From Candidatus Bathyarchaeia archaeon (GTDB taxonomy: Archaea; Thermoproteota; Bathyarchaeia; 40CM-2-53-6), in NCBI GenBank assembly GCA_049517415.1, contig JBEKSC010000020.1:1-51740 (forward strand): DNA of 51,740 bases, read 5' to 3'. Under the pieces are notes generated by a model. That model saw nothing but the letters and a program-made list of their open reading frames with translations, searched no databases and was not told where the DNA came from. Below, one piece after another: positions 1 through 36,770 of the stretch. The position numbers were made by a program, and so were the translations under genes. Within the stretch, counting starts at the first letter, position 1, and every line of letters begins with the position of its first letter.

Positions 1-173
1 GACGAAATAGCAGCCGCAGTTGCCTCCGTGTCATCGCACGAGAGCGGATTAATAACCTTCGTAACACCCCGGGACAGAAGCCCCGCAAACAGCGCCCGAT
101 GGGTGTGGGCTTTGGAAGGCGGTGCCGATATCTCGCCGATTAGAACGCTTTTCGGGGTTATGGTAACGTTCAA
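1..173 (-). CDS. aroA: 3-phosphoshikimate 1-carboxyvinyltransferase (EPSP synthase), 5' part only, truncated by the window edge
   Basis: Not in the ORF track. Manual translation from TTG at 173 gives MNVTITPKSVLIGEISAPPSKAHTHRALFAGLLSRGVTKVINPLSCDDTEATAAAIS, with the EPSPS N-terminal motifs PPSK-x-THRA and NPL-x-x-DT-x-AT. It overlaps the aroK stop by 4 nt (TTGA). Confidence 0.9.
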   Translation of the reverse strand, partial: MNVTITPKSVLIGEISAPPSKAHTHRALFAGLLSRGVTKVINPLSCDDTEATAAAIS

Positions 174-1051
174 CCTTTCACCCTCAAGGATTGAGCCTTC
201 TGGAAGTTGACTGATGTTTCGATGATTCTACCCGGGAGCGACTTCCATGCGGAAAGAACCTGCTTCACCTTAGTTCTTGGGACGATAGCAGCAACCGCAG
301 GCCCCTTTCCTGTCAGGCCAGCAGCAATCGCCCCTTCATGAAGAGCCGCTACAATCGATTTTGTATCGTAGCCAAAGGCTTTGCAATAAACTAAACCATT
401 CAACGTCATCGAATTCCAATAGTTTCCGTTCAAAGCCTCTCGGTGTGCAATTTCGATGAATGGCCTGAATTTTCTTAAAGACGCTCGATCAACTTCGCTG
501 GTGTATTTTTTTCGGTTTGGAACATGAATGAGCACCCGGAAATTAGCCTTCGGCTTGGAACGTTTCAGAATCCGTCTGTGCATGTTGTCCGTTACAACGA
601 GCCCGCCGAAGTAGCACGCACACGCGTCGTCATAGGCTCCGGTCAGTGTCACTCCTGCCCGGAAGCTGGCCTCAACACCTAGTTTTACGGTCTGAACATC
701 GTTTACTTTCCTACCCAGAACCTTCAGACTGGCGATTGCGACGGCGTTGCTTGCAGCGCTGCTGCTTTTCAAGCCGACTGCAATAGGAATATTCGAATTC
801 GTTTCAATGAGCGCCCCAAAACGTTCGTCTTTGCTGAATCGTTGAAATATATGGCGAGCTGTTGTTTCAATTAGGTTCGGATCTTCCCTGGGGTCAGTCA
901 AAATACGCCCGACAAACTCGTGTGGTCGGTTTGTAAGCGTCACTTTCGCTCGCGTCCAAAGCCTAACGCCGAGTGCTGCACCTCTGCCAGTGGCCATGGC
1001 ATTGACTATGGTCACCGCTCCATGACTCACTGCCTCAGCTACTTTTTGCAT
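170..1051 (-). CDS. aroK: archaeal shikimate kinase (GHMP kinase superfamily)
   Basis: GAVTIVNAMATGRGAA, the GHMP motif IPIAVGLKSSSA, TGAYDDA and GLTGKGPA; lies in the shikimate operon. Confidence 0.93.
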   Translation of the reverse strand: MQKVAEAVSHGAVTIVNAMATGRGAALGVRLWTRAKVTLTNRPHEFVGRILTDPREDPNLIETTARHIFQRFSKDERFGALIETNSNIPIAVGLKSSSAASNAVAIASLKVLGRKVNDVQTVKLGVEASFRAGVTLTGAYDDACACYFGGLVVTDNMHRRILKRSKPKANFRVLIHVPNRKKYTSEVDRASLRKFRPFIEIAHREALNGNYWNSMTLNGLVYCKAFGYDTKSIVAALHEGAIAAGLTGKGPAVAAIVPRTKVKQVLSAWKSLPGRIIETSVNFQKAQSLRVKG

Positions 1052-1922
1052 GTTCCATCGCCAGCACGGTCTGGCTCATTGCACTACGCATCTCGATAAT
1101 TGGAGCGCGTTTTCCTGTCCACAGTTCGAAGGCACAAGCGCCTTGATTGACTAGCATGTCTAGGCCGTTGACGCTCTTTGCGCCTGCCAAGCTAGCAAGT
1201 TCGAGCAGCCTAGTATGGGGCGGCTTGTACACAATATCGAAAACGCACTGGTCGTCGCGCAACCATTCCACTGCGACCGGGGGAAAAGACACACCATCCA
1301 TCCCCATGGAGGACGCGTTAACTACGATGTTTGATTGCTCGACGAAATCCTTGAGCATCCTATCCGAGATAGAAGCATATTGGACGTCAACGTGGAGTTT
1401 CCTTCTTATCCGTAGTACGAGTTGCTTAGACTTTGCAAAGGTTCTGTTCACGAGCCGAATTGATGAAGCACGCTGGGCCAACGTGTATGCAATAGCCCGG
1501 CTTGCCCCACCAGCTCCGAATATGAGAACCGACTTTCCGTCAGGCGATACGCCCGCCTCCTCTAACGCCCTGAGAGCACCCACCCCATCGGTATTGTAAC
1601 CGCGGAGTTTCCCCTTTTCATTGATTACAGTGTTGACGGAGCCGATCGCGTCAGCCGAGGTTTCAATCATATCCAGATATGGCTGCACGGTCACCTTGTG
1701 AGGAGCAGTAACATTGAAACCTTTGACACCAGAGGCTCGCAAGCCTTTAACAGCATCCCTCAGACTCCGCCGCGTTACACGGAGAGCTACGTAGGCGGCA
1801 TCTATTTCGGTTGAGCGAAAGGCAGCGTTTTGGATTGTGGGGCTCAAGGAGTGGTCAATGGGGTCCCCTATCAAAGCATAGACCGCTGTGCTTCCAGAAA
1901 TTCTTCCGCTACTGAACTCCAA
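1035..1922 (-). CDS. aroE: shikimate dehydrogenase
   Basis: IGDPIDHSLSP, GFNVTAPHK, GSVNT, GYNTDG, GAGGA, and GLDMLVNQG motifs. Start moved from 1952 to the TTG at 1922, which overlaps the end of aroD. Confidence 0.93.
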   Translation of the reverse strand: MEFSSGRISGSTAVYALIGDPIDHSLSPTIQNAAFRSTEIDAAYVALRVTRRSLRDAVKGLRASGVKGFNVTAPHKVTVQPYLDMIETSADAIGSVNTVINEKGKLRGYNTDGVGALRALEEAGVSPDGKSVLIFGAGGASRAIAYTLAQRASSIRLVNRTFAKSKQLVLRIRRKLHVDVQYASISDRMLKDFVEQSNIVVNASSMGMDGVSFPPVAVEWLRDDQCVFDIVYKPPHTRLLELASLAGAKSVNGLDMLVNQGACAFELWTGKRAPIIEMRSAMSQTVLAMEHAKSS

Positions 1923-2571
1923 GTAGTTGCCACGCACTTCGAAGATTATCAATGGTCAGTTGGCCATCTGCCGTCTTGGAGGCTTCAGTGAGTGAGGCAA
2001 AAGTGAATTCCGCGCCGAAGAGGGGCGAGAGAATTCGTGAGACGATACCGTTACGCCCCATCGCAAATGACACTAGTCTAGTTTCGGATGATTTTTCTTC
2101 GAGGAAGCGTAATATGCTGAGGTTGTCGCGTGGATAGAGTGCGGTTGTAACGACCTTGCAGATATCGCTCCCAACCTTGATTTGGGAGTCCAACACATCC
2201 CCCAATTCATTTCGTGAAGGGGTTCTTGAAAAGTCATGGAACGACACGATCACTTCCGATCCCATGGACTTTACCTGACGAATAACGGACCGTACGTTTG
2301 GAGAAGCAAGATCTAAGTCAATGAATTCAAAACCTGAGGTTGCGGCTGCCATGAGGCGCTTTTCCGTAGTGGCTGAGTCTCGAATGGACTTGTCGGCGGC
2401 TATCACCGGGAATGTTTTCTTGTGAGCAATATCCTCAATCGCCTCCAAATTAGTCAGGTTGTCGAGTCGAAACTCTACCAAATCTGGTTTCTTTTGTGAT
2501 AGCAGGACCATCAGTTGGTCGACATTTTCGCTCCCGTCTACCATGACCGAAAGGCAGATTCGGCAGGTCAA
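1909..2571 (-). CDS. aroD: type I 3-dehydroquinate dehydratase
   Basis: DLVEFRLD, IVSFHDFSRTP, DICKVV (Schiff-base Lys), FAMG..G..SR and DGQ motifs. Confidence 0.9.
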   Translation of the reverse strand: MTCRICLSVMVDGSENVDQLMVLLSQKKPDLVEFRLDNLTNLEAIEDIAHKKTFPVIAADKSIRDSATTEKRLMAAATSGFEFIDLDLASPNVRSVIRQVKSMGSEVIVSFHDFSRTPSRNELGDVLDSQIKVGSDICKVVTTALYPRDNLSILRFLEEKSSETRLVSFAMGRNGIVSRILSPLFGAEFTFASLTEASKTADGQLTIDNLRSAWQLLGVQ

Positions 2572-3626
2572 CGCTCTATCACCATTTCATCGGCCACGAG
2601 CGTTCCGAAATGCCGACCGCCATCTTCAATTCTGACTAAGACTTGATCGCCCGATTTAAGTTCCGAGACTGACTTCGAAGCCTCGTCGGAGACTAGGCGC
2701 ACAGTTTCTGCGTTCTGGACTATAAGAGCGAACAAGCGCCCATTAACTTCTGTTTCAACCAGAATCATCGGTCGCCGTTCGATTTTCACTCGCCCAATGT
2801 GCCCCGTTCTTGCACGACCCGACCTGTTCACGATTAGAACTTCGTCCCCTGCTTTCAATTCTGACAGGTAGCGGGTTTTCTGGCCCGGGGTTAGGACATA
2901 GGACGAAACGGGACCTGCGTTGACCCTGAAAGGTCGTGGTTCAACATGCGGATTTTTGTGGACCTCCGCTTCCACCAAGAACAAACCCGATGACTGGGAC
3001 CCTACCAGCATACCTTCCCCTGGATCCATCAGTTCACACGTGTCAACGCAGGCTCGGGCACCCGTTCCTAGTGGCCTGACTAACGTAACATTCCCTTTCA
3101 GTAAAGCGACCTTTTCTTGCATCTGCTGCAGAAATCGTTCCACTTCTTCGATGTCATTCGGTGAACTCGGTGTAATGACTACTCCATCAACTCCAAGCTC
3201 TAAGGTTTGCAACGCAACCTTAGCATCATTGAGGTTCGCAACGTCGGCTAGAAGGACGGCCTTGTTCCTTGTGCGAGCGATGAGGTTTTCAAGAGGGATA
3301 ATTTTCCAGTTGGGGCATCGGACTAGGATGTAGCGAACGCCTAACGCAGCCAGCCGTACAACTTTCTGCTCATCTGTGGTATCTTTCACTACAACCTCAA
3401 GGGCTGAGTTGCCTGAAACGCTCTCGCCCATGTCGTGATGGTCTGACAGAAGTTTGATTTCAGAACGTTCGTCAGTTGAAGCCGTCTTGAGTTTCAAGCC
3501 ACTGGCAAGTGAGAGGTCAGCTGGTCGTAGCACTGCAACGTCGCAATGACCTTCGGCTGTTTTGAGTAACTCCACTTTGTGTGTTGAAGTAGTGTTAGGA
3601 TCGATTCTGATCCAGAGCTGTTTCAA
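2568..3626 (-). CDS. aroB': 3-dehydroquinate synthase II (AroB', archaeal DKFP pathway)
   Basis: WKIIPLENLIA, LELGVDGV, RACVDT, GEGMLVGS, RPFRVNAG, GRVKIERRP, QNAETVRL and RHFG motifs. Confidence 0.93.
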   Translation of the reverse strand: MKQLWIRIDPNTTSTHKVELLKTAEGHCDVAVLRPADLSLASGLKLKTASTDERSEIKLLSDHHDMGESVSGNSALEVVVKDTTDEQKVVRLAALGVRYILVRCPNWKIIPLENLIARTRNKAVLLADVANLNDAKVALQTLELGVDGVVITPSSPNDIEEVERFLQQMQEKVALLKGNVTLVRPLGTGARACVDTCELMDPGEGMLVGSQSSGLFLVEAEVHKNPHVEPRPFRVNAGPVSSYVLTPGQKTRYLSELKAGDEVLIVNRSGRARTGHIGRVKIERRPMILVETEVNGRLFALIVQNAETVRLVSDEASKSVSELKSGDQVLVRIEDGGRHFGTLVADEMVIER

Positions 3627-4414
3627 TGAGATGACCCCAGCAACTTCATGGAGCTTTGTGCGCTAGCACCTTCATGAACAATCCCGGACAACGCCTTACA
3701 CATAGCCTCCGGTTTTTCGTGTTGAAACACGTTTCGACCAAAGGAGAGGCCGGCAGCTCCAGATTTGATGGAGTTTTCCGCGAGCTCAAGAACTTCCAAA
3801 TCGGTTTTCATCCTAGGGCCACCAGCCACCACCACTGGAACCGGACAACCGTTGATAACTTTCCTGAAGCTTTCCTGGTCACCGGTGTAAACGGTCTTAA
3901 CAATGTCTGCTCCGAGTTCTGCTCCAATCCTAGCAGCGTGGGAAACAAACTCGAATTCATTTCCGTTCTTTATATTTGGCCCCCTGGGGTACATCATTGC
4001 AAGCAGAGGCATCCCGAAAGAATCACACTGCTCAGATAGGCTCCCCAGAAACTGAAGCATCTCATGCTCTTCTTCAGCCCCGATGTTTATGTGGGCCGAA
4101 ACCGCGTCTGCGCCAAGCCTGACCGCTTCCTCAACCGTGCATACGCCGACTTTGAGGTTCGGTTTGCTTCCAAGAGTGGTTGAGGCGTTGACATGGATGA
4201 TAAGCCCGTGGTTGCGAGTATCCACGTGTTTTGCTATGCCCTTGTGGACTAAGACCGCATCGGCTCCACCATTGCAAACAGCACTAATGATTGCTTGCAT
4301 ATTCTCCAACCCTCGTACAGGGCCTAGCGTCACGCCGTGATCCATCGCGATCATGAAGGTCTTCGAATCATCCCGCATGATCCGCCGCATCCTCCTCGTC
4401 TTTCCCGATTCCAT
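3623..4414 (-). CDS. aroA': 2-amino-3,7-dideoxy-D-threo-hept-6-ulosonate (ADH) synthase, DhnA-type class I aldolase
   Basis: AMDHG, LGADAVS, PLLAMMYPRG, AELGADIVKT, VVVAGGP and GRNVFQH motifs; adjacent to aroB'. Start is ATG 4414 or GTG 4417. Confidence 0.88.
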   Translation of the reverse strand: MESGKTRRMRRIMRDDSKTFMIAMDHGVTLGPVRGLENMQAIISAVCNGGADAVLVHKGIAKHVDTRNHGLIIHVNASTTLGSKPNLKVGVCTVEEAVRLGADAVSAHINIGAEEEHEMLQFLGSLSEQCDSFGMPLLAMMYPRGPNIKNGNEFEFVSHAARIGAELGADIVKTVYTGDQESFRKVINGCPVPVVVAGGPRMKTDLEVLELAENSIKSGAAGLSFGRNVFQHEKPEAMCKALSGIVHEGASAQSSMKLLGSSH

Positions 4415-4427
4415 CACAATATCACCG

Positions 4428-5471
4428 TCAAATGTAGCCCTGAGATTTCATCGACTCGCCTATGAGAACAGCACAACCTGCAGCACCGCGAATTGTGTTA
4501 TGCCCGACTGCAACATACTTCACGCCATCAAACACAGGATCCTTTCTCACTCGCCCCACAACAACCGACATACCACGCCCTTCGTTTCTATCGAAACGCG
4601 GTTGCGGCCGGTCCTGGTCTGACCGCACAATGATCGGGCGTTTTGGGGCCGAAGGTAGTTTCAGCTCTTGTGGCTCCGCAGAAAACTCAGCCAAGCAATC
4701 GACGACCTGTTCGGGCGTCGTTGGTTTCACGGTTTGGACGAAGATGGCTTCTGTGTGTCCGTCGATCACTAGGACGCGGTGGCAACTTGCCGAAACGTTA
4801 AACTCAGCGGAATGTCCAATATCGCCAAGGATCTTCTGAGTTTCTCGTTGGACTTTTTCCTCTTCTTCTTTTATGAACGGGATCACATTGTCGATTATGT
4901 CCAATGACGCAACGCCTGGGTAGCCAGCCCCAGATACTGCTTGCATTGAGGACATTACGATGTTCTTCAGACCAAACGTGTCGAAGATAGGTTTCAATGA
5001 GAGGCTGAGGACCGCCGTTGTGCAGTTGGGATTGGTCACTATCGCACCGTCCCATTTCCGTTTATGCCTCTGCTCGTCGATGAGCTTTAGGTGATTGAAG
5101 TTCGCTTCAGGGTTCATCAGGGGGACATCGGCATCCATCCTGTGTGCTGAAGCGTTGCTAACTACCGCGAAACCGGCTTTTGCGAAAACTTCCTCAGTTT
5201 CAACCGCTTGATCAGCTGGTAGGGCTGAGAAGATGATGTCAGCGTCAACTTCCTTAGGATTAGTAGGGTGAACGACCATTTCAGCGATTCCTTCCTTCAA
5301 CTGAGTTTCCATCCTCCAGTTAACCGCTTCGCCAAACCGCATTCCGGCGCTTCTTTCAGATCCGGTCAGAGTTGTAATCTCGAACCATGGGTGGTCCGTC
5401 AGTAGCTGTACGAACCGTTGGCCAACTAGCCCGGTTGCCCCTAGGATTGCAGCTTTCACCCTACAACTCAC
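4428..5471 (-). CDS. asd: aspartate-semialdehyde dehydrogenase (archaeal/fungal type)
   Basis: LGATGLVGQRF, SNASAHR, TNPNCTT (catalytic Cys), QAVSGAGYPG and HNTIRGAAG motifs. Confidence 0.95.
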   Translation of the reverse strand: MSCRVKAAILGATGLVGQRFVQLLTDHPWFEITTLTGSERSAGMRFGEAVNWRMETQLKEGIAEMVVHPTNPKEVDADIIFSALPADQAVETEEVFAKAGFAVVSNASAHRMDADVPLMNPEANFNHLKLIDEQRHKRKWDGAIVTNPNCTTAVLSLSLKPIFDTFGLKNIVMSSMQAVSGAGYPGVASLDIIDNVIPFIKEEEEKVQRETQKILGDIGHSAEFNVSASCHRVLVIDGHTEAIFVQTVKPTTPEQVVDCLAEFSAEPQELKLPSAPKRPIIVRSDQDRPQPRFDRNEGRGMSVVVGRVRKDPVFDGVKYVAVGHNTIRGAAGCAVLIGESMKSQGYI

Positions 5472-6828
5472 CCCTCACAACTTGCCTCATGAGGTTCAAA
5501 GCCGTCTCCCTCTCATCCCATGAGACAAAAACAAGGATGCTCGAGGCCAGCGTCAGCATTCCGAAGATGTTGATTTCCTTTTCGCGCAGGCGCTGTGATA
5601 TTCTACCTATGATCCCGGGAGTGTCCTCCAGGCCAACCCCTTTGACTTTCAAGAAAGCCAAGTTTCTTTGGACTGCCATCGCGAGGGTTTCGCTGCAACC
5701 AATGAGTAAGTCATGGACGTTTTTGAGTAGAAGAGTCTGAGGAGTCTGGGGGACATAGAAGATAACGGAATCAAAGTTGGCTGAAAGACCATCCAGCATT
5801 GAATGTTGTCTTATCTCACGCACTACGTTGGCTAATATTTCCGGGTTTTCGGAAATGGCTTTGCCAGTTATTGTGATCGCCATCGCAGGGGTACTGCTGG
5901 CAAAAGTAACCTCGATTTCGCCTGATATTCCGCCGGTGATGATTGTTCCGTCAGCTTCTAGGTCGTCTTTGTTGTGATTAATCACTTTGACTGGTATATC
6001 GGGATCTTTGTACTTCAGAGCCTTCCTGTGGATGAATTTGGTTCCTGAATCTGCTAACCCCACGAGGGTCCGAACTTCTATCCGAGCGAGTTTACGTGCG
6101 TTTGGAATGATTTTGGGGTCGGCTGTGAGGATTCCGTCAGCGTCAGTTACCAAGACGACCTCGTCAGCTCCGATAGCTTTCGCTATGATGAAAGCGGTTG
6201 TGTCGCTTCCGCCTCGCCCTATGGTGCTTATCTTGCCCCCAGTTGAGCGGCCTACGAATCCGGCGATCACTGGCACCGTCCCCAAGTCGAGTAATGGGAC
6301 GACGTGCTCACGGACTTTCTGCAAGCACAGCTCAAGTATTGGGTTCGCGTTGGAGAAGTCATCATCAGTAATGATCGGCCAATCGGCGTCGGTCGGATCG
6401 AAGTATCTCGCTTCGAGACCTTCGGATTTAAGCGCGGTGGCAAAGATTCGTACGCTCGTTCTTTCGCCCATCGCCAGGACGTCATCTAGATCCGTCTTGT
6501 CCGGCGCCTTAGTAGAGTCATGATTGACAAGGCCGATAAGCTGATCAGTCATCTTTCCGATAGCTGAAACTACTACAACGAGTCGAGTACCCTTCGCCGT
6601 CTCTTTGAATACTAACCGGGCTGCTTTCGCAATACGGTCTTTGTCCGCTAGGCTTGAACCGCCGAACTTGACAACAATTCTCCGTGTCTTTTGTTTAGAT
6701 GAAGCCCGAGGACTTGCGGCGATTACCGTTTGAAGTATTGTCGGCGCAGAAATCTTACTGGACAGAGTTTGGGGAGTGGTAGAGCCAGTGGCACTCACCG
6801 TAAATGTAGTCACCGAAAATGTAGCCAC
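5461..6828 (-). CDS. lysC: aspartate kinase with C-terminal ACT domain(s); N-terminus probably supplied by the overlapping leader ORF via +1 frameshift
   Basis: IVVKFGGSS, VVSA, GER, GRGGSDTTA and TDADGILTADP motifs. The conserved domain begins only at about 6678 (residue 51). The only upstream in-frame ATG/GTG/TTG codons are GTGs at 6828, 6813 and 6798, all inside the leader. Confidence 0.9.
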   Translation of the reverse strand: MATFSVTTFTVSATGSTTPQTLSSKISAPTILQTVIAASPRASSKQKTRRIVVKFGGSSLADKDRIAKAARLVFKETAKGTRLVVVVSAIGKMTDQLIGLVNHDSTKAPDKTDLDDVLAMGERTSVRIFATALKSEGLEARYFDPTDADWPIITDDDFSNANPILELCLQKVREHVVPLLDLGTVPVIAGFVGRSTGGKISTIGRGGSDTTAFIIAKAIGADEVVLVTDADGILTADPKIIPNARKLARIEVRTLVGLADSGTKFIHRKALKYKDPDIPVKVINHNKDDLEADGTIITGGISGEIEVTFASSTPAMAITITGKAISENPEILANVVREIRQHSMLDGLSANFDSVIFYVPQTPQTLLLKNVHDLLIGCSETLAMAVQRNLAFLKVKGVGLEDTPGIIGRISQRLREKEINIFGMLTLASSILVFVSWDERETALNLMRQVVRGEL

Positions 6829-6847
6829 CGCGCGTTGTACCAGCCAT
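6755..6847 (-). CDS. aromatic-rich leader peptide (uORF), 30 aa: MAGTTRGGYIFGDYIYGECHWLYHSPNSVQ
   Basis: Manual translation from ATG 6847 to TAA 6755. Six aromatic codons (Y9, F11, Y14, Y16, W21, Y23) in residues 9-23, directly ahead of an aromatic biosynthesis operon. lysC is in its +1 frame. Confidence 0.8.
   Translation of the reverse strand: MAGTTRGGYIFGDYIYGECHWLYHSPNSVQ
6785..6829 (-). repeat. three tandem 15-nt modules (GGTGGCTACATTTTC / GGTGACTACATTTAC / GGTGAGTGCCACTGG) ending in Phe, Tyr and Trp codons; candidate +1 frameshift cassettes
   Basis: Seen directly. Units 1 and 2 match at 13 of 15 nt, and all three begin with SD-like GGTG(G/A). Confidence 0.8.
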
Positions 6848-6895
6848 TTGCTTTATGCTACGCCCCTCTGTAGCCTAGCGCACCACTTGAGTGTG

Positions 6896-6903
6896 ACTTA
6901 AAA
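6896..6903 (-). promoter_or_regulatory. probable TATA box (TTTTAAGT) of the aromatic operon
   Basis: AT-rich box about 50 nt upstream of the leader ATG. The implied short 5'UTR contains GAGGGG. Confidence 0.55.
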
Positions 6904-7279
6904 GAATTCCTCAGACAATCAACATAATCATACTTCGTTCGCCGTACGGGACCGTCGGTCTCAAAGAAGGCATAATCCCGAACTGTCCTGAGTATGGATG
7001 CACCTCCACTACCTTGGCAGGCTCGCTACTTCAATGCGCGCACCGTCGCGAGACGCGCGTAAAGGCGGGTCGTCACCCTTAGCAGATCTGAAACAATAAA
7101 CGAGCAGATGATCCCTTACATTAACCGCCTCTCAGCCCTGCTCTTCGTAGTGGCAGGTGTCGCAAACCACCGAGCGAATAAGCAAGAATGAACGAAGGAA
7201 TGGCATGCGAAACAATAACCTCAAGAGTTCGTTTCAACGCTCCAACCCACTACTCAAGGAAAATGCTGGATGATTTCCC

Positions 7280-8257
7280 ATGCCTGAGGAAGCAATTACT
7301 ACAAAGGCTCTGACGAAAACGTTCGGTCATTTTACCGCGGTCGACGGTCTAAACGTAGGCGTCAATAAAGGAGAGCTATTTGGCCTGCTTGGGCCAAACG
7401 GCGCAGGAAAGACCACCATCGTCCGAATGCTTTGCACCCTAATCGAACCGACACGAGGCACCGCCAATGTTGTGGGCTATGATATTCGCGAGCAAGCGGC
7501 TGAGGTTAGGCGACAGATTGGAGTGGTTTCTGAGGGAGTCTCCCTCTACAAGGATCTGACGATCGAAGAGAACCTGAAGCTGCTCAGTACGCTCTACGAA
7601 ATCCCCCGCCCCAAGGCAGAGGCAAGAATACGAGAGTTGATGGATATGTTCGCTTTCAGGGAAAAAGCGAGCCGACTGGTAGGTGCCCTTTCATCCGGGT
7701 GGGCGAAGAAGGCTATGATATGCGCGGCTTTGCTTCACAGCCCACAGGTCCTATTCCTTGACGAAGTGACCTCCGGCCTCGACCCTCAATCAGCGATCGC
7801 ACTTCAGGATTTCACAAGGAAACAGTGCGACCTGGGAGTCACTGTAATCTGGACGACGCACTACATGGGTGAACCTGAGAAGATCTGCGACCGAGTTGGC
7901 ATTATGTTCGCGGGCAGATTAGTGCAGGTTGGGACCCCGAACGAATTGAAACATAGCGTAAGCGAACTCGCGATGGTAGAAGTTGAGACACCCGACTTGT
8001 CAAAAGTTCAGCTTGACAGGGTAAAACTCAAACTGAAGGCGATGAACCATGTTTGCAACGTGAAGTATGTGCATTCGAAGCTTCAAGTTAGCTGCGAGCG
8101 AACTGATACACTTGCCGAAGAAGTCGCGGCCGCTCTGTTTGATGTTGGGGCAAGGATTAGAGCGATTAGCACGAAAGATCCAACGCTTGAAGAGGCATTC
8201 ATCGCTCTAACGGGTGGCGAAGAGGAAATTGATCGATTCCTCGAAAGCTCGGGATAA
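7280..8257 (+). CDS. ABC-2 type exporter ATP-binding protein (DrrA/CcmA-like)
   Basis: Walker A GPNGAGKTT, degenerate signature LSSGW, Walker B LFLDEVTSGLDP, TTHY, and C-terminal TLEEAFIALTG. Confidence 0.92.
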   Translation: MPEEAITTKALTKTFGHFTAVDGLNVGVNKGELFGLLGPNGAGKTTIVRMLCTLIEPTRGTANVVGYDIREQAAEVRRQIGVVSEGVSLYKDLTIEENLKLLSTLYEIPRPKAEARIRELMDMFAFREKASRLVGALSSGWAKKAMICAALLHSPQVLFLDEVTSGLDPQSAIALQDFTRKQCDLGVTVIWTTHYMGEPEKICDRVGIMFAGRLVQVGTPNELKHSVSELAMVEVETPDLSKVQLDRVKLKLKAMNHVCNVKYVHSKLQVSCERTDTLAEEVAAALFDVGARIRAISTKDPTLEEAFIALTGGEEEIDRFLESSG

Positions 8258-30179: not shown

Positions 30180-30226
30180 AACTACAGGCACCGAACCCTT
30201 CGACGTGCATTTTTGTACGCTGTAGC

Positions 30227-30234
30227 TTTAAATA
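30227..30234 (+). promoter_or_regulatory. TATA box (TTTAAATA) of the trp operon
   Basis: Near-consensus archaeal TATA box, implying a TSS near 30255-30259. Confidence 0.7.
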
Positions 30235-30253
30235 AAGCATTGATGTCAATTGC

Positions 30254-31690
30254 GTGGCACCGCGATATTCGGGGAAGAAAAAATGGGGTATAGCCTTTGG
30301 GCGGCCTGCCCAGCAACTAAAGACGCAAACAGAACATAGGCTAAAGCTCCAGAAATTCCGGTACTCAACAAACCCCGTACAAACATTTCTTGCACTTAGT
30401 CATCAGAGCGAATACTGTTACCTCCTCGAATCTGCTGAGGGCCCAAGGAAACTCGCGCAATATTCTTTCATTGGCTTCTCCCCTGAAAAAATCGTTGAGG
30501 TGAAGGATGGCCGCTACACCGAAACGATCCCCGGAGATGCATCCACCACCATTCAGATAGACGACCCTTATCTCCCGCTGCGGAAGACGCTGGCCGAAAA
30601 CTTCACAACGTATCATGGGTTCCGGTTCGTAGGAGGCTTGGTAGGCTACTTCTCCTACGATGCAATTCGCTATCTGGAATCGATACCTACTCAAGCTCGC
30701 GATGATCTGAAACTTCCAGATTTCGAATTCGGAGTCTACGATGATGGGATCGTATTCGACCACCTGAACGGCCAGGCTTACTATTACTGGTACAACAATG
30801 ACAGGTTGAAAGAGATTGAACGACTTCTCCACCAAAGGATAACGCCAACAAATCTAGCCTCTGACCGACTGAGAGTAAACCTAAGGCAACAAGAATTCGA
30901 ATCAAAGGTGGACGAAGCGAAGAAGTACATTAGAGCTGGAGACATATTCCAAGTCGTACTTTCAAAACGCCTCGAGTTCGCTTTCAAAGGCGACCTACTC
31001 AATTTCTACAAGGCATTACGCGAGATCAACCCCTCCCCATACATGTACTTCCTCAAAATGAAAGACCGAGCATTAGTCGGCTCAAGCCCTGAGATGCTTG
31101 GAAGAGTCGACAAAGGCCGCGCGGAAACATTTCCAATAGCAGGAACGCGCCCCGTGGGAGCAAACAGCGAAGAAGACAGTCGATTGGCGGACGAGCTATT
31201 GAGTGACCCAAAGGAACGAGCTGAGCACATTATGCTGATAGACCTTGCCAGGAACGACCTTGGAAAAGTTTGCCAGTTCGGGACGGTTGAAGTTCCAGAG
31301 TTCATGGTGGTCCAAAGGTACAGCCACGTTCAACACATAGTTTCGCGGGTTTCAGGTCAACTTCAACCGGGTTGCGACTCGCTCGACACATTCAAAGGAA
31401 TCTTCCCGGCCGGAACAGTGTCTGGAGCGCCGAAAAAAAGAGCGATGGAAATCATAGAGGAACTGGAACCGACTAGGAGAGGACCGTATGCTGGGGCAGC
31501 AGGTTACTTCTCGTACAACGGCAACGCTGATTTTGCAATAACGATACGGACGCTAGTCGCCAATGGAAATATGGCCTACATACAAGCCGGGGCAGGGATA
31601 GTCGCGGATTCACAACCTACACGAGAATGGTTTGAAACAGAACAAAAGGCCGAAGCCCTCGTTCACGCCTTGAAAGCCGGTGGGATATGA
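30254..31690 (+). CDS. trpE: anthranilate synthase component I; start uncertain (GTG 30254, or entry by +1 frameshift from the leader)
   Basis: [62 protein letters not shown] and AGAGIVADS motifs. Confidence 0.93.
30283..30339 (+). CDS. trp leader peptide (uORF), 18 aa: [18 protein letters not shown], with a CTT-TGG-G candidate +1 shift site
   Basis: ATG 30283 preceded by GGGG at 30271-30274; TAG at 30337-30339; single Trp codon at 30298-30300 directly after CTT. trpE is in its +1 frame. Confidence 0.75.
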   Translation: MGYSLWAACPATKDANRT

Positions 31691-31691
31691 A

Positions 31692-32273
31692 ATGAAAGTC
31701 TTGATAGTAGATAATTTCGATTCGTTCGTATACAACCTCGCGCAGTACGTAGGCCAACTAGGAGCCGAACCTATCGTCTGCAGAAATAATCAGATCACTC
31801 TGCGCCAAGTGGAAGAACTAGGACCCGACCGAATCATACTCTCGCCTGGCCCAGGTAGACCTGAGAACCGGAAATATTTCGGAATCTGCTTGGATATAAT
31901 AAAGAAGCTAAGCCCCGGCGTCCCCACGCTCGGCGTATGTCTAGGGCATCAAGGCATAGCGTACGCATTTGGCGGGTCAATAGTGCCCGCGAAACGCTTG
32001 ATGCATGGAAAAACTAGTTTGATTGAACATGAAAGCGACGGCTTGTTCAAAGCTGTTGAGAACCCGCTCCGGGCGACCAGGTACCATTCCCTAGTTTGCG
32101 AAAGAAAGAGCTTTCCAAAGTGCTTGGAAGAGACCGCAACATCGATCGACGATCGCGAGATCATGGGATTTCGGCATCGAAAGTATCCGATCTATGGTGT
32201 CCAGTTCCACCCCGAATCCATTCTGACTTCTGAGGGCCTAAAGATTATCAAAAATTTCCTAGAGAGATCCTGA
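31692..32273 (+). CDS. trpG: anthranilate synthase component II (glutamine amidotransferase)
   Basis: DNFDSFVYNL, SPGPG, GVCLGHQ, RYHSL and QFHPES motifs. Start placed at ATG 31692. Confidence 0.95.
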   Translation: MKVLIVDNFDSFVYNLAQYVGQLGAEPIVCRNNQITLRQVEELGPDRIILSPGPGRPENRKYFGICLDIIKKLSPGVPTLGVCLGHQGIAYAFGGSIVPAKRLMHGKTSLIEHESDGLFKAVENPLRATRYHSLVCERKSFPKCLEETATSIDDREIMGFRHRKYPIYGVQFHPESILTSEGLKIIKNFLERS

Positions 32274-32275
32274 AA

Positions 32276-33337
32276 ATGATCAGGGAAGCTATTCAACTGT
32301 TAGTGGACCGAAATGACTTGCCATTCGAACTCGCGCAGCAATCCATGCGAGAGATCATGGCAGGCGAAGCAACACCATCTCAAACTGGAGCCTTTCTAAC
32401 ATCGCTTAGGATGAAAGGAGAAAATATCGACGAGATAACCGCCCTAGCAATGGTAATGCGAGAAAATGCAGTTCGAATCAACCCCCATGTCAACGGAAGG
32501 ACTGTTGATACCTGCGGGACTGGTGGAGACCGACTAAAAACATTCAACGTGAGTACTGGTGCGGCACTTGTCGCGTCCGGCGCAGGAGTGCCCATCGCAA
32601 AGCATGGCAACCGTTCGGTCACAAGCAAATGCGGGAGCGCGGACGTTCTGGAAGCGGTTGGAGTCAACCTAAACGTACCACCATTAGTGGTCCAGAAATC
32701 GATAGAACAAGTAGGAATCGGTTTCATGTTCGCGCCTGCATTCCATCCAGCAATGAAAAACGCAATCGTCCCACGTAGGGAAATAGGAATACGAACAGTC
32801 TTCAACATTCTCGGACCCCTCACAAACCCAGCCAACGCAAACGCGCAAGTGCTAGGAGTCTATGATTCAAGCCTCGTCGAACCGATGGCGAAAGTGCTGC
32901 ACAAACTCGGTACCGAAGAAGCCATAGTAGCGCACGGGGTGGATGGCTTAGATGAAATATCAACTATAGGCAAAACGAAACTCGCGTGGTTGAAAGACGG
33001 ACAGACCACAACAAAGGAGATTACCCCGCAAGATCTGAACCTCAAACAGGCGCGGCCAAGCGAAATCTCCAGTTTCGACGTTGACGAGAGCGCGAAGCTC
33101 CTGGTAAACATACTCAACGGGACAGAGGACAAACAATCTACACGACTTGAAATGGTTCTTGCAAACGCTGCAGCTGCTATAGTTATTGGCGAAAAGGCCG
33201 ACGACTTGGCCTCGGGCGTAGAAGTCGGACGTGAAGCAATAGCAAGTGGAAGGGCCTACGGCAAGCTCAAGGCGCTAATTGAATGCACAAACGGCGATGT
33301 CTCTAGACTTGAAAGGATAGAATCACAAAATGCCTAG
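32276..33337 (+). CDS. trpD: anthranilate phosphoribosyltransferase
   Basis: DTCGTGGD, FNVST, KHGNRS, GSADVLE, RTVFNILGPLTNP and DGLDE motifs. Confidence 0.95.
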   Translation: MIREAIQLLVDRNDLPFELAQQSMREIMAGEATPSQTGAFLTSLRMKGENIDEITALAMVMRENAVRINPHVNGRTVDTCGTGGDRLKTFNVSTGAALVASGAGVPIAKHGNRSVTSKCGSADVLEAVGVNLNVPPLVVQKSIEQVGIGFMFAPAFHPAMKNAIVPRREIGIRTVFNILGPLTNPANANAQVLGVYDSSLVEPMAKVLHKLGTEEAIVAHGVDGLDEISTIGKTKLAWLKDGQTTTKEITPQDLNLKQARPSEISSFDVDESAKLLVNILNGTEDKQSTRLEMVLANAAAAIVIGEKADDLASGVEVGREAIASGRAYGKLKALIECTNGDVSRLERIESQNA

Positions 33338-34106
33338 TCTATTAACAAAGTTGATTGAAGATGCCGAAAGAAGAGTCGGCACAGGCTACTACGATATCAG
33401 AGAGACCGTCGAGCACGAAACCGTCAGCCTTAGACAAGTACTCAAATCGTCTCACAGGAACGCCATAATAGCTGAGATTAAACCGATCTCCCCCGCCCTC
33501 GGTCCACTCCGTCCAAGCATGGATCCAGTTGATGCGGCAATCAAGCTTGCCAAGGGTGGCGCAGTTGCTTTATCCGTCCTAACGGAACCGGACAACTTCG
33601 GCGGAAAAATAGAGACCCTTCGACGAATTAGACGAAGCGTAGACCTACCGCTGCTCATGAAAGACATAATCATTCACAGGTCACAGATTCATGCGGGCAA
33701 GAAATCGGGAGCCGACTGCATCCTCCTCATCGAATCAGTTTTCTCAGCACATCCCACACCCTCCATGCAAGGCCTGATTCATGAAGCACACCAAGAACAA
33801 CTGGAAGTAGTTCTCGAAGTCCACAGCGAAGACGAACTGCAAAAAGCTCTTGAAAGTGAAGCGGACATTATCGGTGTAAATAACCGAAATCTTGCGACAT
33901 TAGAAACCGACATAAACACAACCGCACGACTAGTAGGCAGGATCAATCAAAGGGCTGGAAAGGCCATCATAAGCGAGAGCGGGTTCGAGAACGCGAATGA
34001 CATTCGCAAATTGAAAACAGCAACAGTGGATGGATACTTGATAGGTTCTTCAATTATGCTCTCAGAAAATTTGGAAACTAAAGTTCGTGAGTTCGTGCTC
34101 GCATAA
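33330..34106 (+). CDS. trpC: indole-3-glycerol phosphate synthase
   Basis: IIAEIK.SP, SVLTEP..FGG, KD, GADCILLI, EVH, IGVNNRNL and ISESG motifs. Confidence 0.93.
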   Translation: MPSLLTKLIEDAERRVGTGYYDIRETVEHETVSLRQVLKSSHRNAIIAEIKPISPALGPLRPSMDPVDAAIKLAKGGAVALSVLTEPDNFGGKIETLRRIRRSVDLPLLMKDIIIHRSQIHAGKKSGADCILLIESVFSAHPTPSMQGLIHEAHQEQLEVVLEVHSEDELQKALESEADIIGVNNRNLATLETDINTTARLVGRINQRAGKAIISESGFENANDIRKLKTATVDGYLIGSSIMLSENLETKVREFVLA

Positions 34107-34117
34107 GGAATTTTGCT

Positions 34118-34762
34118 ATGAGAGTCAAGATTTGTGGTTTAATGCGACCGGAGGATGTACGGACCGCCTTGGACAGCGGCGCAGATGCTCTTGGTTTCGT
34201 AGTATCGAGCCCTTCCTCGCCAAGAAACCTGTCGCTGAACGCGGCACACGGATTAATGAAAAACGTTCCAGTCTTCGCAACGAAAGTGGCGGTTACCTCC
34301 GCGAATGACACGAAAACTGTCGCCAAGATCTGTTCCAAGCTAAAGCCCGATGCACTTCAACTTCATCGATACCAACAACAACTTGTAGGATTGATCAGGC
34401 GCAAACACCCTCAAACTAAACTTATCCTAGCCAAGGCTATCCGGGATCGTGCCTCTCTGGAACTAGCAAGTTGGATTTCAAGAGAATCGGACGCGGTTTT
34501 GGCCGATTCACCAAGCCTCAGCGGAATGGGCGGTACAGGCCGAACCCATGACTGGCACCTCACAGCCACCGTCCGAAATAGAATATACCCACATCCACTA
34601 ATCCTAGCGGGAGGACTAACACCAATCAACGTTCAACAGGCTATCAGGAAAGTCAGGCCCTTCGCCGTCGATGTCTCAAGCGGCGTCGAAAAGACGATTG
34701 GAGTGAAAGACCGCAATAAGATTCGTAACTTTATCAAAAAAGCAAAGGAGAACGTAGATTGA
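34118..34762 (+). CDS. trpF: phosphoribosylanthranilate isomerase
   Basis: [31 protein letters not shown] and VDVSSGVE motifs. Confidence 0.95.
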
Positions 34763-35958
34763 CCAATCAACATTCCAAACCTGTGGATGGCAAATTCGGG
34801 AAATTTGGTGGCCGTTATGTCCCGGAAACTTTGATGAGCGCTCTTATCGAGCTGGAAGAAGAATACACTCGGCTAAAGAATGATCCCGAATTCAAATCCC
34901 AACTTGAGTATCTCCTAAGAGAATTCGCAGGCCGACCAACGCCCCTGTATTACGCTGCGAACTTGACACGAAAGGCGGGAGGCGCGAAGATCTACATCAA
35001 ACGCGAGGACTTGGCACATGGGGGAGCACACAAGATCAATAATACGATTGGGCAGGCGCTCCTCGCGAAAGGAATGGGCAAGGAGCGAGTCATAGCCGAG
35101 ACTGGGGCGGGCCAACATGGGGTCGCAAGCGCAATCGCTTGTGCCGCGCTAGGTCTGAAATGCGAAGTTTACATGGGCTCAGAGGATGTGGAAAGGCAGA
35201 AGCTGAACGTCTTCCGCATGAACCTTCTAGGGACAAAGGTTCACACTGTCCATTCAGGGTCGAAGACACTCAAAGATGCGATAAATGAGGCCTTTAGAGA
35301 CTGGGTAACAAACGTTGAGAACACCTACTATTTACTGGGCTCCGTCGTAGGCCCACACCCATACCCGACTTTGGTTAGGGATTTTCAAAGCGTCATTGGC
35401 CTCGAAATTAAGGAGCAGATCCTGCGGAAAGAAGGACGCCTTCCAGATGCGATAGTTGCATGCGTAGGAGGAGGGAGCAACTCGATTGGTGCGTTCTACC
35501 CATTCATCGCTGACACGCAAGTAGGCTTGTATGGTGTTGAAGCAGGCGGCCTAGGCTTAGAGTCTGGAAAACATGCAGCGACATTGTGCGCTGGACAAGA
35601 AGGCGTCTTTCATGGGATGCTCACTTACATACTCCAAGATGAAGATGGCCAAATAGAATCAACCCACAGCATCTCCGCTGGCCTCGACTATCCTGGAGTT
35701 GGCCCAGAACACGCGTACCTTAAGGCTACTGGCCGGGCTCATTACACTTCGGCAACTGATCAACAGGCCTTAGAAGCCTTCACGGAGTTAAGTAGACTTG
35801 AGGGCATTATACCGGCCCTCGAATCTGCACACGCAGTACATTATGCGGTCATTCTAGCATCCAAGATGCGCCGAGACCAGCTCGTGGTGATTAACCTGTC
35901 AGGACGCGGGGACAAGGACGTCAATGTCGTCGCGAAGAGTTTAGGCGTAAAGATTTGA
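34759..35958 (+). CDS. trpB: tryptophan synthase beta chain (TrpB1 type)
   Basis: [23 protein letters not shown] (PLP Lys), [29 protein letters not shown] and NLSGRGDKD motifs. Confidence 0.96.
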
Positions 35959-36770
35959 TGAGAATCTCAGAATCATTCGCTCAACTGAAGAAGAAAGGCG
36001 AAGGTGCACTCATTGCATACCTGACAGTAGGTTACCCGACCCTGAAACAGACTCCACGCCTAATAGGGGCCATGATCGAAGGCGGAGCAGACATCATCGA
36101 ACTCGGCATCCCCTTTTCGGATCCGATTGCGGATGGGCCTACGATTCAAGCCGCTGTCATGCGTTCCTTGGCGAGCGGAACTAAGCCACTTGATGCTTTG
36201 GAGATAGCTCGAGCAGTTCGTGAGAAGCATGATACGCCTCTGGTTCTGATGACTTACTTCAATCCTATCTACAGGGTTGGATTACAGAAATTCCTAAGCC
36301 TCGCCAAGAATTCCGGGATCTCCGGAATTATCGTCCCCGACCTTCCGGTAGAAGAATCGAAGGATTACAAGAAGGAATGCGTTGCAACCGACATTGACAC
36401 CATATTCTTGGCTTCGCCTTCAACTCATCCGGAGAGGCTTAAACAAATTCTGGCGCAAACTTCTGGTTACCTCTATCTGATTTCATTATACGGTGTGACA
36501 GGTGTCCGGTCAGAAGTCTCTCAGTCGGCGCTGGCCCTAATCAGGGAATATCGGGCCATTGTTGGAGGGTCCGTACCCCTCGCAGTAGGATTCGGAATTT
36601 CTAAAGCTGACCACGTAAGAGAAATGATCCACGCGGGAGCAGATGGAGCAATAGTGGGAAGCGCATTCGTGAAAATAATTGGCGAAAATTCGCGGAACAT
36701 GCCTCGTTCGCTCAAGAAATTGGAAAACTTCGTCAGGGCTATGAAGAAAGCAACAATAAAGGCCAAATGA
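35955..36770 (+). CDS. trpA: tryptophan synthase alpha chain
   Basis: [37 protein letters not shown] and ADGAIVGSA motifs. Confidence 0.96.

Follow-up and report, generated by a model that had tools for sequence, protein, structure and literature searches.

A three-module aromatic leader overlapping the aspartate kinase gene of Bathyarchaeia as a candidate for amino-acid-gated +1 frameshifting

The window analysed here is a stretch of 51,740 nt from a Candidatus Bathyarchaeia archaeon (assembly GCA_049517415.1, contig JBEKSC010000020.1, positions 1 to 51,740), in which an aspartate kinase (AK) gene on the (-) strand opens an operon of aromatic biosynthesis and is itself overlapped by a short leader open reading frame (ORF). 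The AK domain (AA_kinase plus ACT, Pfam E 2e-49) occupies 5461-6681 (-) through its stop, within an ORF of 455 aa (5461-6828). The rest of the operon, comprising asd, a DeoC-type aldolase, dehydroquinate synthase II (DHQS-II), dehydroquinase I (DHQase I), shikimate dehydrogenase (DH) and a GHMP kinase, follows at 170-5471 (-) in genes that overlap or abut. The operon corresponds to the archaeal shikimate route, which starts from aspartate semialdehyde, so AK and asd feed aromatic synthesis. The leader ORF heads the operon at 6755-6847 (-), running from ATG 6847-6845 to TAA 6757-6755 (30 codons plus stop), and the AK ORF is +1 relative to it.

The core of the leader is built of three in-register five-codon modules ending in TTC, TAC and TGG, namely a Phe module GGT GGC TAC ATT TTC (6815-6829 (-); ATT-T at 6820-6817, Phe codon at 6817-6815), a Tyr module GGT GAC TAC ATT TAC (6800-6814 (-); ATT-T at 6805-6802, Tyr codon at 6802-6800) and a Trp module GGT GAG TGC CAC TGG (6785-6799 (-); Trp codon at 6787-6785). 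Tandem Repeats Finder (TRF) reported a 15-nt period with 2.4 copies at 6795-6830. An earlier interpretation made from the letters alone (hereafter the sequence-only reading) had described this layout, and every statement it made on the leader ORF, the modules and the ATT-T positions proved accurate. The GGT-G of each module also creates a GTG in the +1 frame (6828-6826, 6813-6811 and 6798-6796, together spanning 6796-6828 (-)). These GTGs, at AK-frame codons -49, -44 and -39 relative to the R-IVVKFGG motif, are the only canonical starts of AK, no other ATG, GTG or TTG being found upstream of the motif. As the sequence-only reading had held, AK is open in +1, no ATG, GTG or TTG lies in its frame between the leader stop and the kinase domain, and its N-terminus is unlike an aspartate kinase, the Pfam AA_kinase match beginning only at residue 50. 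A Ser/Thr/Pro-rich linker in the AK frame (6682-6795 (-)), unconserved in sequence and always open, precedes the kinase domain.

Upstream of the leader, a TATA-box-like TTTTAAG (6897-6903 (-)) in an invariant block, CTTTTAAG, is the putative operon promoter, and a Shine-Dalgarno (SD)-like GAGGGG (6863-6868 (-)) corresponds to a GAGGGGTG-like block in relatives. The window uses the second of two conserved start positions, ATG 6847; the ancestral first position reads ATA (6854-6856 (-)), where relatives have ATG, GTG or TTG with a GAGGGG-type SD-like block 4-6 nt ahead. The leader SD is complementary to the 3′ end of the organism's own 16S rRNA, ...GGATCACCTCCT. A GGTG(A/G)TC element in the modules is complementary to the same 3′ end, GGTGATC being a perfect complement of 16S GAUCACC, which would fit the internal SD that had been proposed; pairing in the window itself is limited to GGTGA and GGTGG. 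RNAalifold returned a sole consensus helix, a 9-bp hairpin between modules 2 and 3 that lies inside the leader and encloses both GTGs, with 0 compensatory pairs and no covariation.

No hairpin followed by a T-run was present in 6400-7300, in agreement with the earlier statement that no hairpin plus U-tract follows the leader; the combined terminator and sigma-70 promoter scan found nothing, with 0 terminator-like sites, and an Rfam search of 6000-7600 with an E cutoff of 10 gave two chance-level matches and no family. Of the two hallmarks of an attenuator, the locus thus has the short ORF with cognate aromatic codons and lacks the alternative hairpins ending in a terminator. Contigs of three separate public runs covered 6652-7300 with 0 differences and 0 indels. 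Since the layout also recurs in relatives, this excludes the assembly indel or error that the sequence-only reading had asked to be checked. One RNA run (X20) yielded nothing across 6300-7300 and so carries no information on transcription.

AK orthologues in relatives provided a genus sample of 18 AK loci (L001-L018). A leader ORF with its own SD and a proximal in-frame start, at one of two alternative positions, was found in all 18, and AK lay in the +1 frame of the leader in 16 of them, as well as in 4/4 loci of genus g2 and 5/5 of family f2, so that the alignment suggested by the sequence-only reading bore out both the leader start and the +1 offset. The CTTTTAAG block was invariant in 15/15 aligned genus relatives and was followed by the GAGGGGTG-like block and then by the two alternative starts. 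NTT-TAY was present in 18/18 genus loci, 4/4 of g2 and 5/5 of f2, the Tyr module of the genus loci having been located by a pattern that requires NTT-TAY and matched all 18. Relative to the Tyr codon, TTC stood five codons ahead in 16/18 loci (CAC in L002 and L003), TGG five codons past it in 15/18 (TGA in L003, another codon in L009 and L010) and the leader stop 15 codons past it in 14/18. TTC was kept where the AK-frame residue changes (L006, L008 and L012) and the codons before it vary; of 16 genus loci, 11 had NTT-T ahead of the Phe codon. All 16 intact loci kept the AK frame open for 45-57 codons, four of them having no start after the leader stop, and +1-frame GTGs 15 nt apart were found in all 16 as well as in f2 and g2. 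This joint conservation of leader, SD, start, aromatic codons and stop position indicates, at the level of sequence, a feature beyond chance. In the two remaining loci AK is out of +1 register with the leader. L010 (G006) carries a one-base insertion and L018 (G013) in-frame TGAs, the AK frame being open for only 13 and 5 codons, respectively; both are probably damaged or mis-assembled, and could represent a pseudogene, an assembly error or something else.

Comparison with these relatives qualified the idea of one module per aromatic end product. TTC, TAC and TGG are all present, but the Phe module of the window is a 15-nt insertion unique to its lineage that matches the Tyr module at all but 2 of its 15 bases, TAC having become TTC through one of these two changes. 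In the nearest relatives of the window the first module has decayed (ATG CAC), and the lineage of the window appears to have re-created a Phe module by duplicating its Tyr module.

For a wider sample, a degenerate pattern of the Phe-Tyr junction was used that fixes the codon before Tyr and the GGT and does not include TGG; it recovered 32 stretches from GTDB genomes and 110 from metagenomes, and the matches in named assemblies were Bathyarchaeia metagenome-assembled genomes (MAGs), as the sequence-only reading had guessed for the group. Across all loci, duplicates included, 97 of 156 matches were open in +1 into KFGG. A promoter-motif filter left 84 unique leaders, 81 of them complete. TGG lay 10 codons past the Phe codon in 74 of the 81 complete variants, and the stop lay 10 codons past Trp in 58 of these 74, with TAA, TAG and TGA all in use. 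Two leaders (L087 and L105) carry an extra Phe module. The codon before Tyr, forced by the pattern, was ATT in 58, CTT in 13 and GTT in 10 of the 81; that before Phe was NTT in 35/81 (AAT in 23, AAC in 14), and that before Trp was TAC in 59/74 and NTT in 0/74. The sequence-only reading had placed the slip at ATT-T ahead of the Phe and Tyr codons and had called the Trp unit less obviously slippery. NTT-T was seen at Tyr in every case and at Phe in a minority of variants, and was absent at Trp, so that a symmetric "OR gate" with three slippery inputs is not borne out by the sequences. Gly codons were always GGT, which preserves the GTG; they were so within the pattern and likewise in the AK-anchored loci. 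One match, L177 (G012), was discarded as a chance match inside a gene whose product bears the motif LGDDVYGED and which we take to encode a threonine aldolase-like enzyme.

Past the leader stop (~6662-6754), mean column entropy was 1.80 at third, 1.61 at first and 1.43 at second codon positions of the AK frame, second positions being C-rich. A codon periodicity that follows the AK frame in an otherwise unconserved 35-codon linker indicates that the linker is translated in that frame. The overlap after Trp shows no periodicity. Together with its SD, start and stop, the leader likewise appears from sequence to bear the marks of a translated ORF.

The window holds a second leader of related design ahead of trpEGDCFBA (30254-36770; trpE 30254-31690). 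This trp leader ORF of 18 codons (30283-30339 (+)) reads ATG GGG TAT AGC CTT TGG from ATG 30283, with CTT-TGG at 30295-30300, and trpE is in its +1 frame. The form ATG RGG NNN NNN NTT TGG with trpE in +1 was found in 42 of 46 genomes, comprising 25/26 order relatives and 17/20 members of other families or orders; NTT occurs in all of them for the reason that the search pattern required it before TGG. The three genomes of other families or orders without the leader have ordinary trpE starts. From the closest stop upstream to the conserved domain, the trpE frame contains no ATG, GTG or TTG in 11/25 order relatives and in 6/17 of the others, thus in 17/42 overall. A TGA overlaps the ATG of the trp leader in 8/25 order relatives, and the nearest trpE-frame stop never lies downstream of that point. 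The base after TGG varies freely while the +1 codon stays Gly, and TrpE-frame similarity is back within three codons. No +1-frame GTG of the AK-leader kind occurs in the trp leader. A +1 shift at NUU-UGG would be the simplest route to TrpE, and as a candidate for +1 frameshifting gated by Trp the trp leader is cleaner than that of AK. The frameshift idea of the sequence-only reading thereby gained strong indirect support from this second locus, although its own AK locus always retains GTGs in the +1 frame.

Two further features of the trp region were recorded. One is a 6-bp hairpin, UUGGGC-N5-GCCCA(A/G), whose first bases fall within the proposed trp shift site (30296-30315 (+)) and which recurs in the genus relatives L182-L197; L186 has GGAC...GUCC in place of GGGC...GCCC, a compensatory change. 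RNAalifold on the trp leaders gave no shared motif. Just upstream of the trp TATA box (TTTAAATA, 30229-30236) lies a direct repeat GTRCA-N5-GTAC (30205-30219 (+)), kept as GTACA...GTAC in relatives, a possible counterpart of the TGTACA boxes to which TrpY binds in methanogens.

The same operon was then compared in other families of a class-wide sample. AK of f5, f8, f10, f12, f16, f17, f20 and f32 starts in the ordinary way, at an ATG 8-11 codons ahead of VVKFGG, and a separate leader ORF lies upstream of it. With the best ORF picked per locus, 7-10 of the last 14 leader residues were Phe, Tyr or Trp in 15/16 genomes, a count of 7 being reached in 5 of 1600 shuffles. A strong hairpin follows 1-6 nt past the leader stop (L234-L248; f5, f8, f10, f16, f17, f20 and f32), in some cases trailed by a T-run, GGAG and the AK ATG. 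Leader and hairpin together are a classical-looking attenuator, which we did not find described for Archaea, and these aromatic-rich leaders are an independent sign that aromatic-codon leaders govern the operon in Bathyarchaeia. The overlapping +1 form is found instead in f1 (genera g1 and g2) and f2. The f2 leaders of AK read ATG GGT GAT CAT CTT TTC and those of g2 ATG GGT GGT CAT CTT TAC TGG, both being the trp-leader design with Phe or Tyr codons replacing TGG.

In several lineages the kinase domain of AK has been lost while promoter, leader and an open +1 frame of 64-85 codons were kept (L038/L178 of G001 and L131; L117, L125, L139 and L150; probably also L078/L146 and L120/L138/L160). G001 (L038), and likewise L131, has the leader followed by a 64-codon +1 remnant, with aroD starting at its own ATG 43 nt on. 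In L117, L125, L139 and L150 the +1 frame runs on in register into what looks, by eye against the AK of the window, like a remnant of the C-terminal (ACT) part of AK. Persistence of the leader without AK indicates that it is an attribute of the operon rather than of the AK protein, and translation of the +1 frame seems to have been kept up to the next gene.

Considering these observations together, we lean towards a +1 frameshift gated by hungry aromatic codons as the best reading of the AK leader. The 30-codon leader would be a translated regulatory ORF that reports the supply of aromatic aminoacyl-tRNA. Ribosomes would initiate at the SD-led leader ATG and, with Phe, Tyr and Trp ample, would reach the fixed leader stop, yielding AK and the translationally coupled genes downstream in only small amounts. 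When an aromatic codon is slow in the A site, as we expect under starvation, the P-site tRNA on NUU would re-pair one base on at UUU in the manner of prfB, most clearly at ATT-TAC and, in the lineage of the window, also at ATT-TTC; the shifted ribosome would continue in the +1 frame through the linker into AK, and the tight gene overlaps would carry the signal down the operon. The Tyr site ATT-TAC is the best candidate for the shift. Starvation dependence, and roles for the SD-like GGTGRTC, for Phe codons outside a slippery context and for the Trp codon, are likewise predictions of this model. The Trp codon, being outside any slippery context, may act by stalling or ribosome collision; 10 codons, which separate Phe from Trp and Trp from the stop, is the usual spacing of stacked ribosomes, a connection that is speculative. 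The module 2:module 3 hairpin could mask the GTGs from free subunits. Extended to both loci, the proposal is that Bathyarchaeia steer their aromatic-pathway and trp operons through a starved-codon +1 slip into the first enzyme, with tandem Phe, Tyr and Trp modules in this genus, which we regard as somewhat probable.

Several observations weigh against frameshifting as the explanation. Every AK leader seen has two or three +1-frame GTGs, so a canonical route to AK exists and internal initiation is possible. Only 35/81 variants place NTT-T ahead of the Phe codon, and none does so ahead of Trp. Re-pairing of AUU or GUU on UUU leaves a mismatch at the first position, and CTT, the classic slippery codon, accounts for 13/81 of the codons before Tyr. 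The SD-like element stands 6-7 nt from the P-site codon, a distance resembling initiation spacing, the SD of prfB being spaced by a short 3 nt. L002 and L003 have no Phe codon, L003 has TGA for TGG, and L009 and L010 have no Trp. Since the modules are conserved in both frames, constraint at the nucleotide level cannot be ascribed to a single function; at the trp locus, conservation also seems to extend to the trpE-frame residues G-I-x-F-G, which lie upstream of the proposed shift.

The main rival explanation takes the +1-frame GTGs at face value: AK would initiate there, each GTG served by the SD-like GGTGRTC of the preceding module, and the leader would be an overlapping upstream ORF (uORF) that tunes such initiation, either by occluding it or by unfolding the hairpin of modules 2 and 3. 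The constant 15-nt spacing of the GTGs in all 16 intact genus loci, f2 and g2, the invariable GGT of the Gly codons, the enclosure of both GTGs by the 9-bp hairpin and a GAGG 8-11 nt ahead of the first GTG in some leaders all speak for it. Yet the SD-like element is a long ~14 nt (aligned) from the next GTG, the hairpin shows 0 compensatory pairs, and neither the conserved Trp codon nor the fixed leader stop is accounted for. The direction of regulation would also be wrong, since ribosomes stalled on the Phe, Tyr and Trp codons would cover the GTGs, so that starvation would lower internal initiation and raise frameshifting. Finally, the trp leader has the same design without such a start, and 17/42 trpE genes have none at all. 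We therefore hold internal GTG initiation to be a tentative and rather unlikely explanation.

The remaining alternatives appear far less probable. If the locus were a single gene, AK would carry a conserved beta-strand-like N-terminal extension (VVTFxVVTFxV) and the leader frame would be accidental; the conserved AK-frame TTT (Phe) and V/T pattern, and the invariable T at the third position of the leader's I/V/L codon, fit this idea. It is nevertheless very improbable, given that SD and start of the leader are conserved in their own right and its stop is fixed in place but varies in codon type, that TTC is kept in L006, L008 and L012 despite a changed AK-frame residue, that the TAC/TAT variation is silent in the leader and gives T/M in AK, that aromatic-rich leaders stand at the same site in other families and that the leader survives AK loss (for example in L038 and L117). 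We would give equally little credence to a reading of the 15-nt repeats as protein-binding sites (an operator or the target of an RNA-binding regulator) or as a structured RNA whose coding look is secondary. The repeats are indeed tandem and partly palindromic (GTGATCAC), with nucleotide conservation above the need of either frame alone, but there is no Rfam match in the region scanned and no covariation, the modules vary in number and content yet retain aromatic codons, and the fixed stop, the start codons and the trp twin are left unexplained. Most improbable is a small tRNA-type (bulge-helix-bulge, BHB) intron of 3n+1 bases that holds the leader stop and is spliced out, the leader then being the N-terminus of AK. 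The missing codon periodicity in the overlap after Trp would agree with it. However, a strict BHB scan, which relaxed forms could escape, found no shared motif, the best position being common to 8 of 80 leaders; stop-spanning candidates of 3n+1 bases numbered 15/80, against 24 of 3n and 17 of 3n+2, and in the trp leaders 7/42 against 21 and 21. RNAalifold gave no fold of that type, and because trpE-frame conservation starts within three codons of TGG, the trp leader has no room for an intron. Transcriptional slippage was set aside because the T-runs are merely 3-4 bases long.

Of known systems, the proposed frameshift most resembles bacterial prfB (RF2; CUU UGA C with an upstream SD). In both cases the main ORF is +1 to a short ORF, a P-site NUU can re-pair on UUU during a slow A site, an SD-like element lies upstream and the logic is one of product feedback; it is chiefly the A-site codon that sets CTT TGG G of the trp leader apart from CUU UGA C. 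The slow codon here is, however, a sense (aromatic) codon, so that charged tRNA and not a release factor would be sensed, and the host is an archaeon with an SD-like spacing of 6-7 nt, against the 3 nt of prfB, and up to three tandem modules. Bacterial attenuation leaders (trpL, pheL and pheST) share the short SD-led ORF with end-product codons at the head of a biosynthetic operon, whereas the leaders described here have a single codon of each kind and no runs, no terminator/antiterminator pair and an out-of-frame overlap with the first gene; the run-plus-hairpin form is the one present in f5, f8, f10, f16, f17, f20 and f32. Hungry-codon +1 frameshifting (E. coli under starvation; yeast Ty1, CUU AGG C) combines a slow A-site sense codon with a re-pairing P-site tRNA in the same way, but those cases are adventitious or depend on a rare tRNA. 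The ermC leader (drug-induced frameshift) and antizyme (+1, polyamine sensor) similarly read a small-molecule state as a change of frame; they sense drugs or polyamines, the shifted ribosome of ermC merely unfolds mRNA, and neither is archaeal or senses amino acids.

Control of amino-acid biosynthesis by leader translation is a textbook mechanism of bacteria, and hungry-codon frameshifting has been studied for decades as error. To our knowledge leader-translation control has no established archaeal counterpart, and none emerged from our literature search. That search, which covered leader peptides, attenuation, frameshifting, trpE and uORFs in archaea and Bathyarchaeia with subscription journals outside its scope, found no description of the element among the papers listed. 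In PMC8211752, the -1 frameshift of Sulfolobus (Saccharolobus) fucA1 is the only experimentally supported cellular frameshift in Archaea, and archaeal +1 events (in a virus and in Mg chelatase) are merely suggested; fucA1 differs from the present case in shifting -1 at A-AAA-AAT, without a leader or a known regulatory logic. The 2016 review by Atkins (PMC5009743) says that a useful trans-frame protein from starvation-type frameshifting was not known and treats pheL frameshifting as incidental. If our proposal is right, Bathyarchaeia would possess the first natural frameshift switch that senses amino acids, and Archaea their first cellular +1 programmed frameshift, with the charged-tRNA level read directly as a choice of frame, without an RNA switch or a protein regulator; the AK leader and its trp twin would unite leader regulation and hungry-codon frameshifting. 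Short as it is, the signal is conserved throughout an entire class of sediment and peat archaea that are abundant and uncultured. For the annotation of these genomes, the consequence would be that gene callers give AK a spurious GTG start and truncate or mis-start trpE.

Further scans addressed the rest of the genome. A search for other GGTGRY pairs spaced 12, 15 or 18 nt returned 26 matches, of which only the AK leader was of such kind, and a genome-wide search for the trp-leader design returned 18, trpE alone being credible. A generic scan for an SD-led uORF with a start-less +1 ORF gave 1 case in +1 and 4 in the +2 control; none of these was convincing, and the scan was too strict to recover the two known cases. 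Upstream, pheA (prephenate dehydratase) has no leader and an ordinary SD-led GTG start, and the chorismate synthase locus showed nothing notable. An ARAGORN census found 8 tRNAs, or 30 with introns allowed, and is incomplete, probably because the tRNA genes are intron-rich. Within the operon, the GAGGGGTG motif recurs within the end of AK (5459-5476 (-)), ahead of GTG 5459, where asd probably starts; this fits translational coupling. A second, paralogous AK is encoded elsewhere in the genome (G000:C22:36977-38290 (-)) in two matching pieces separated by ~120 nt, a gap that could be an insertion or an intron-like interruption.

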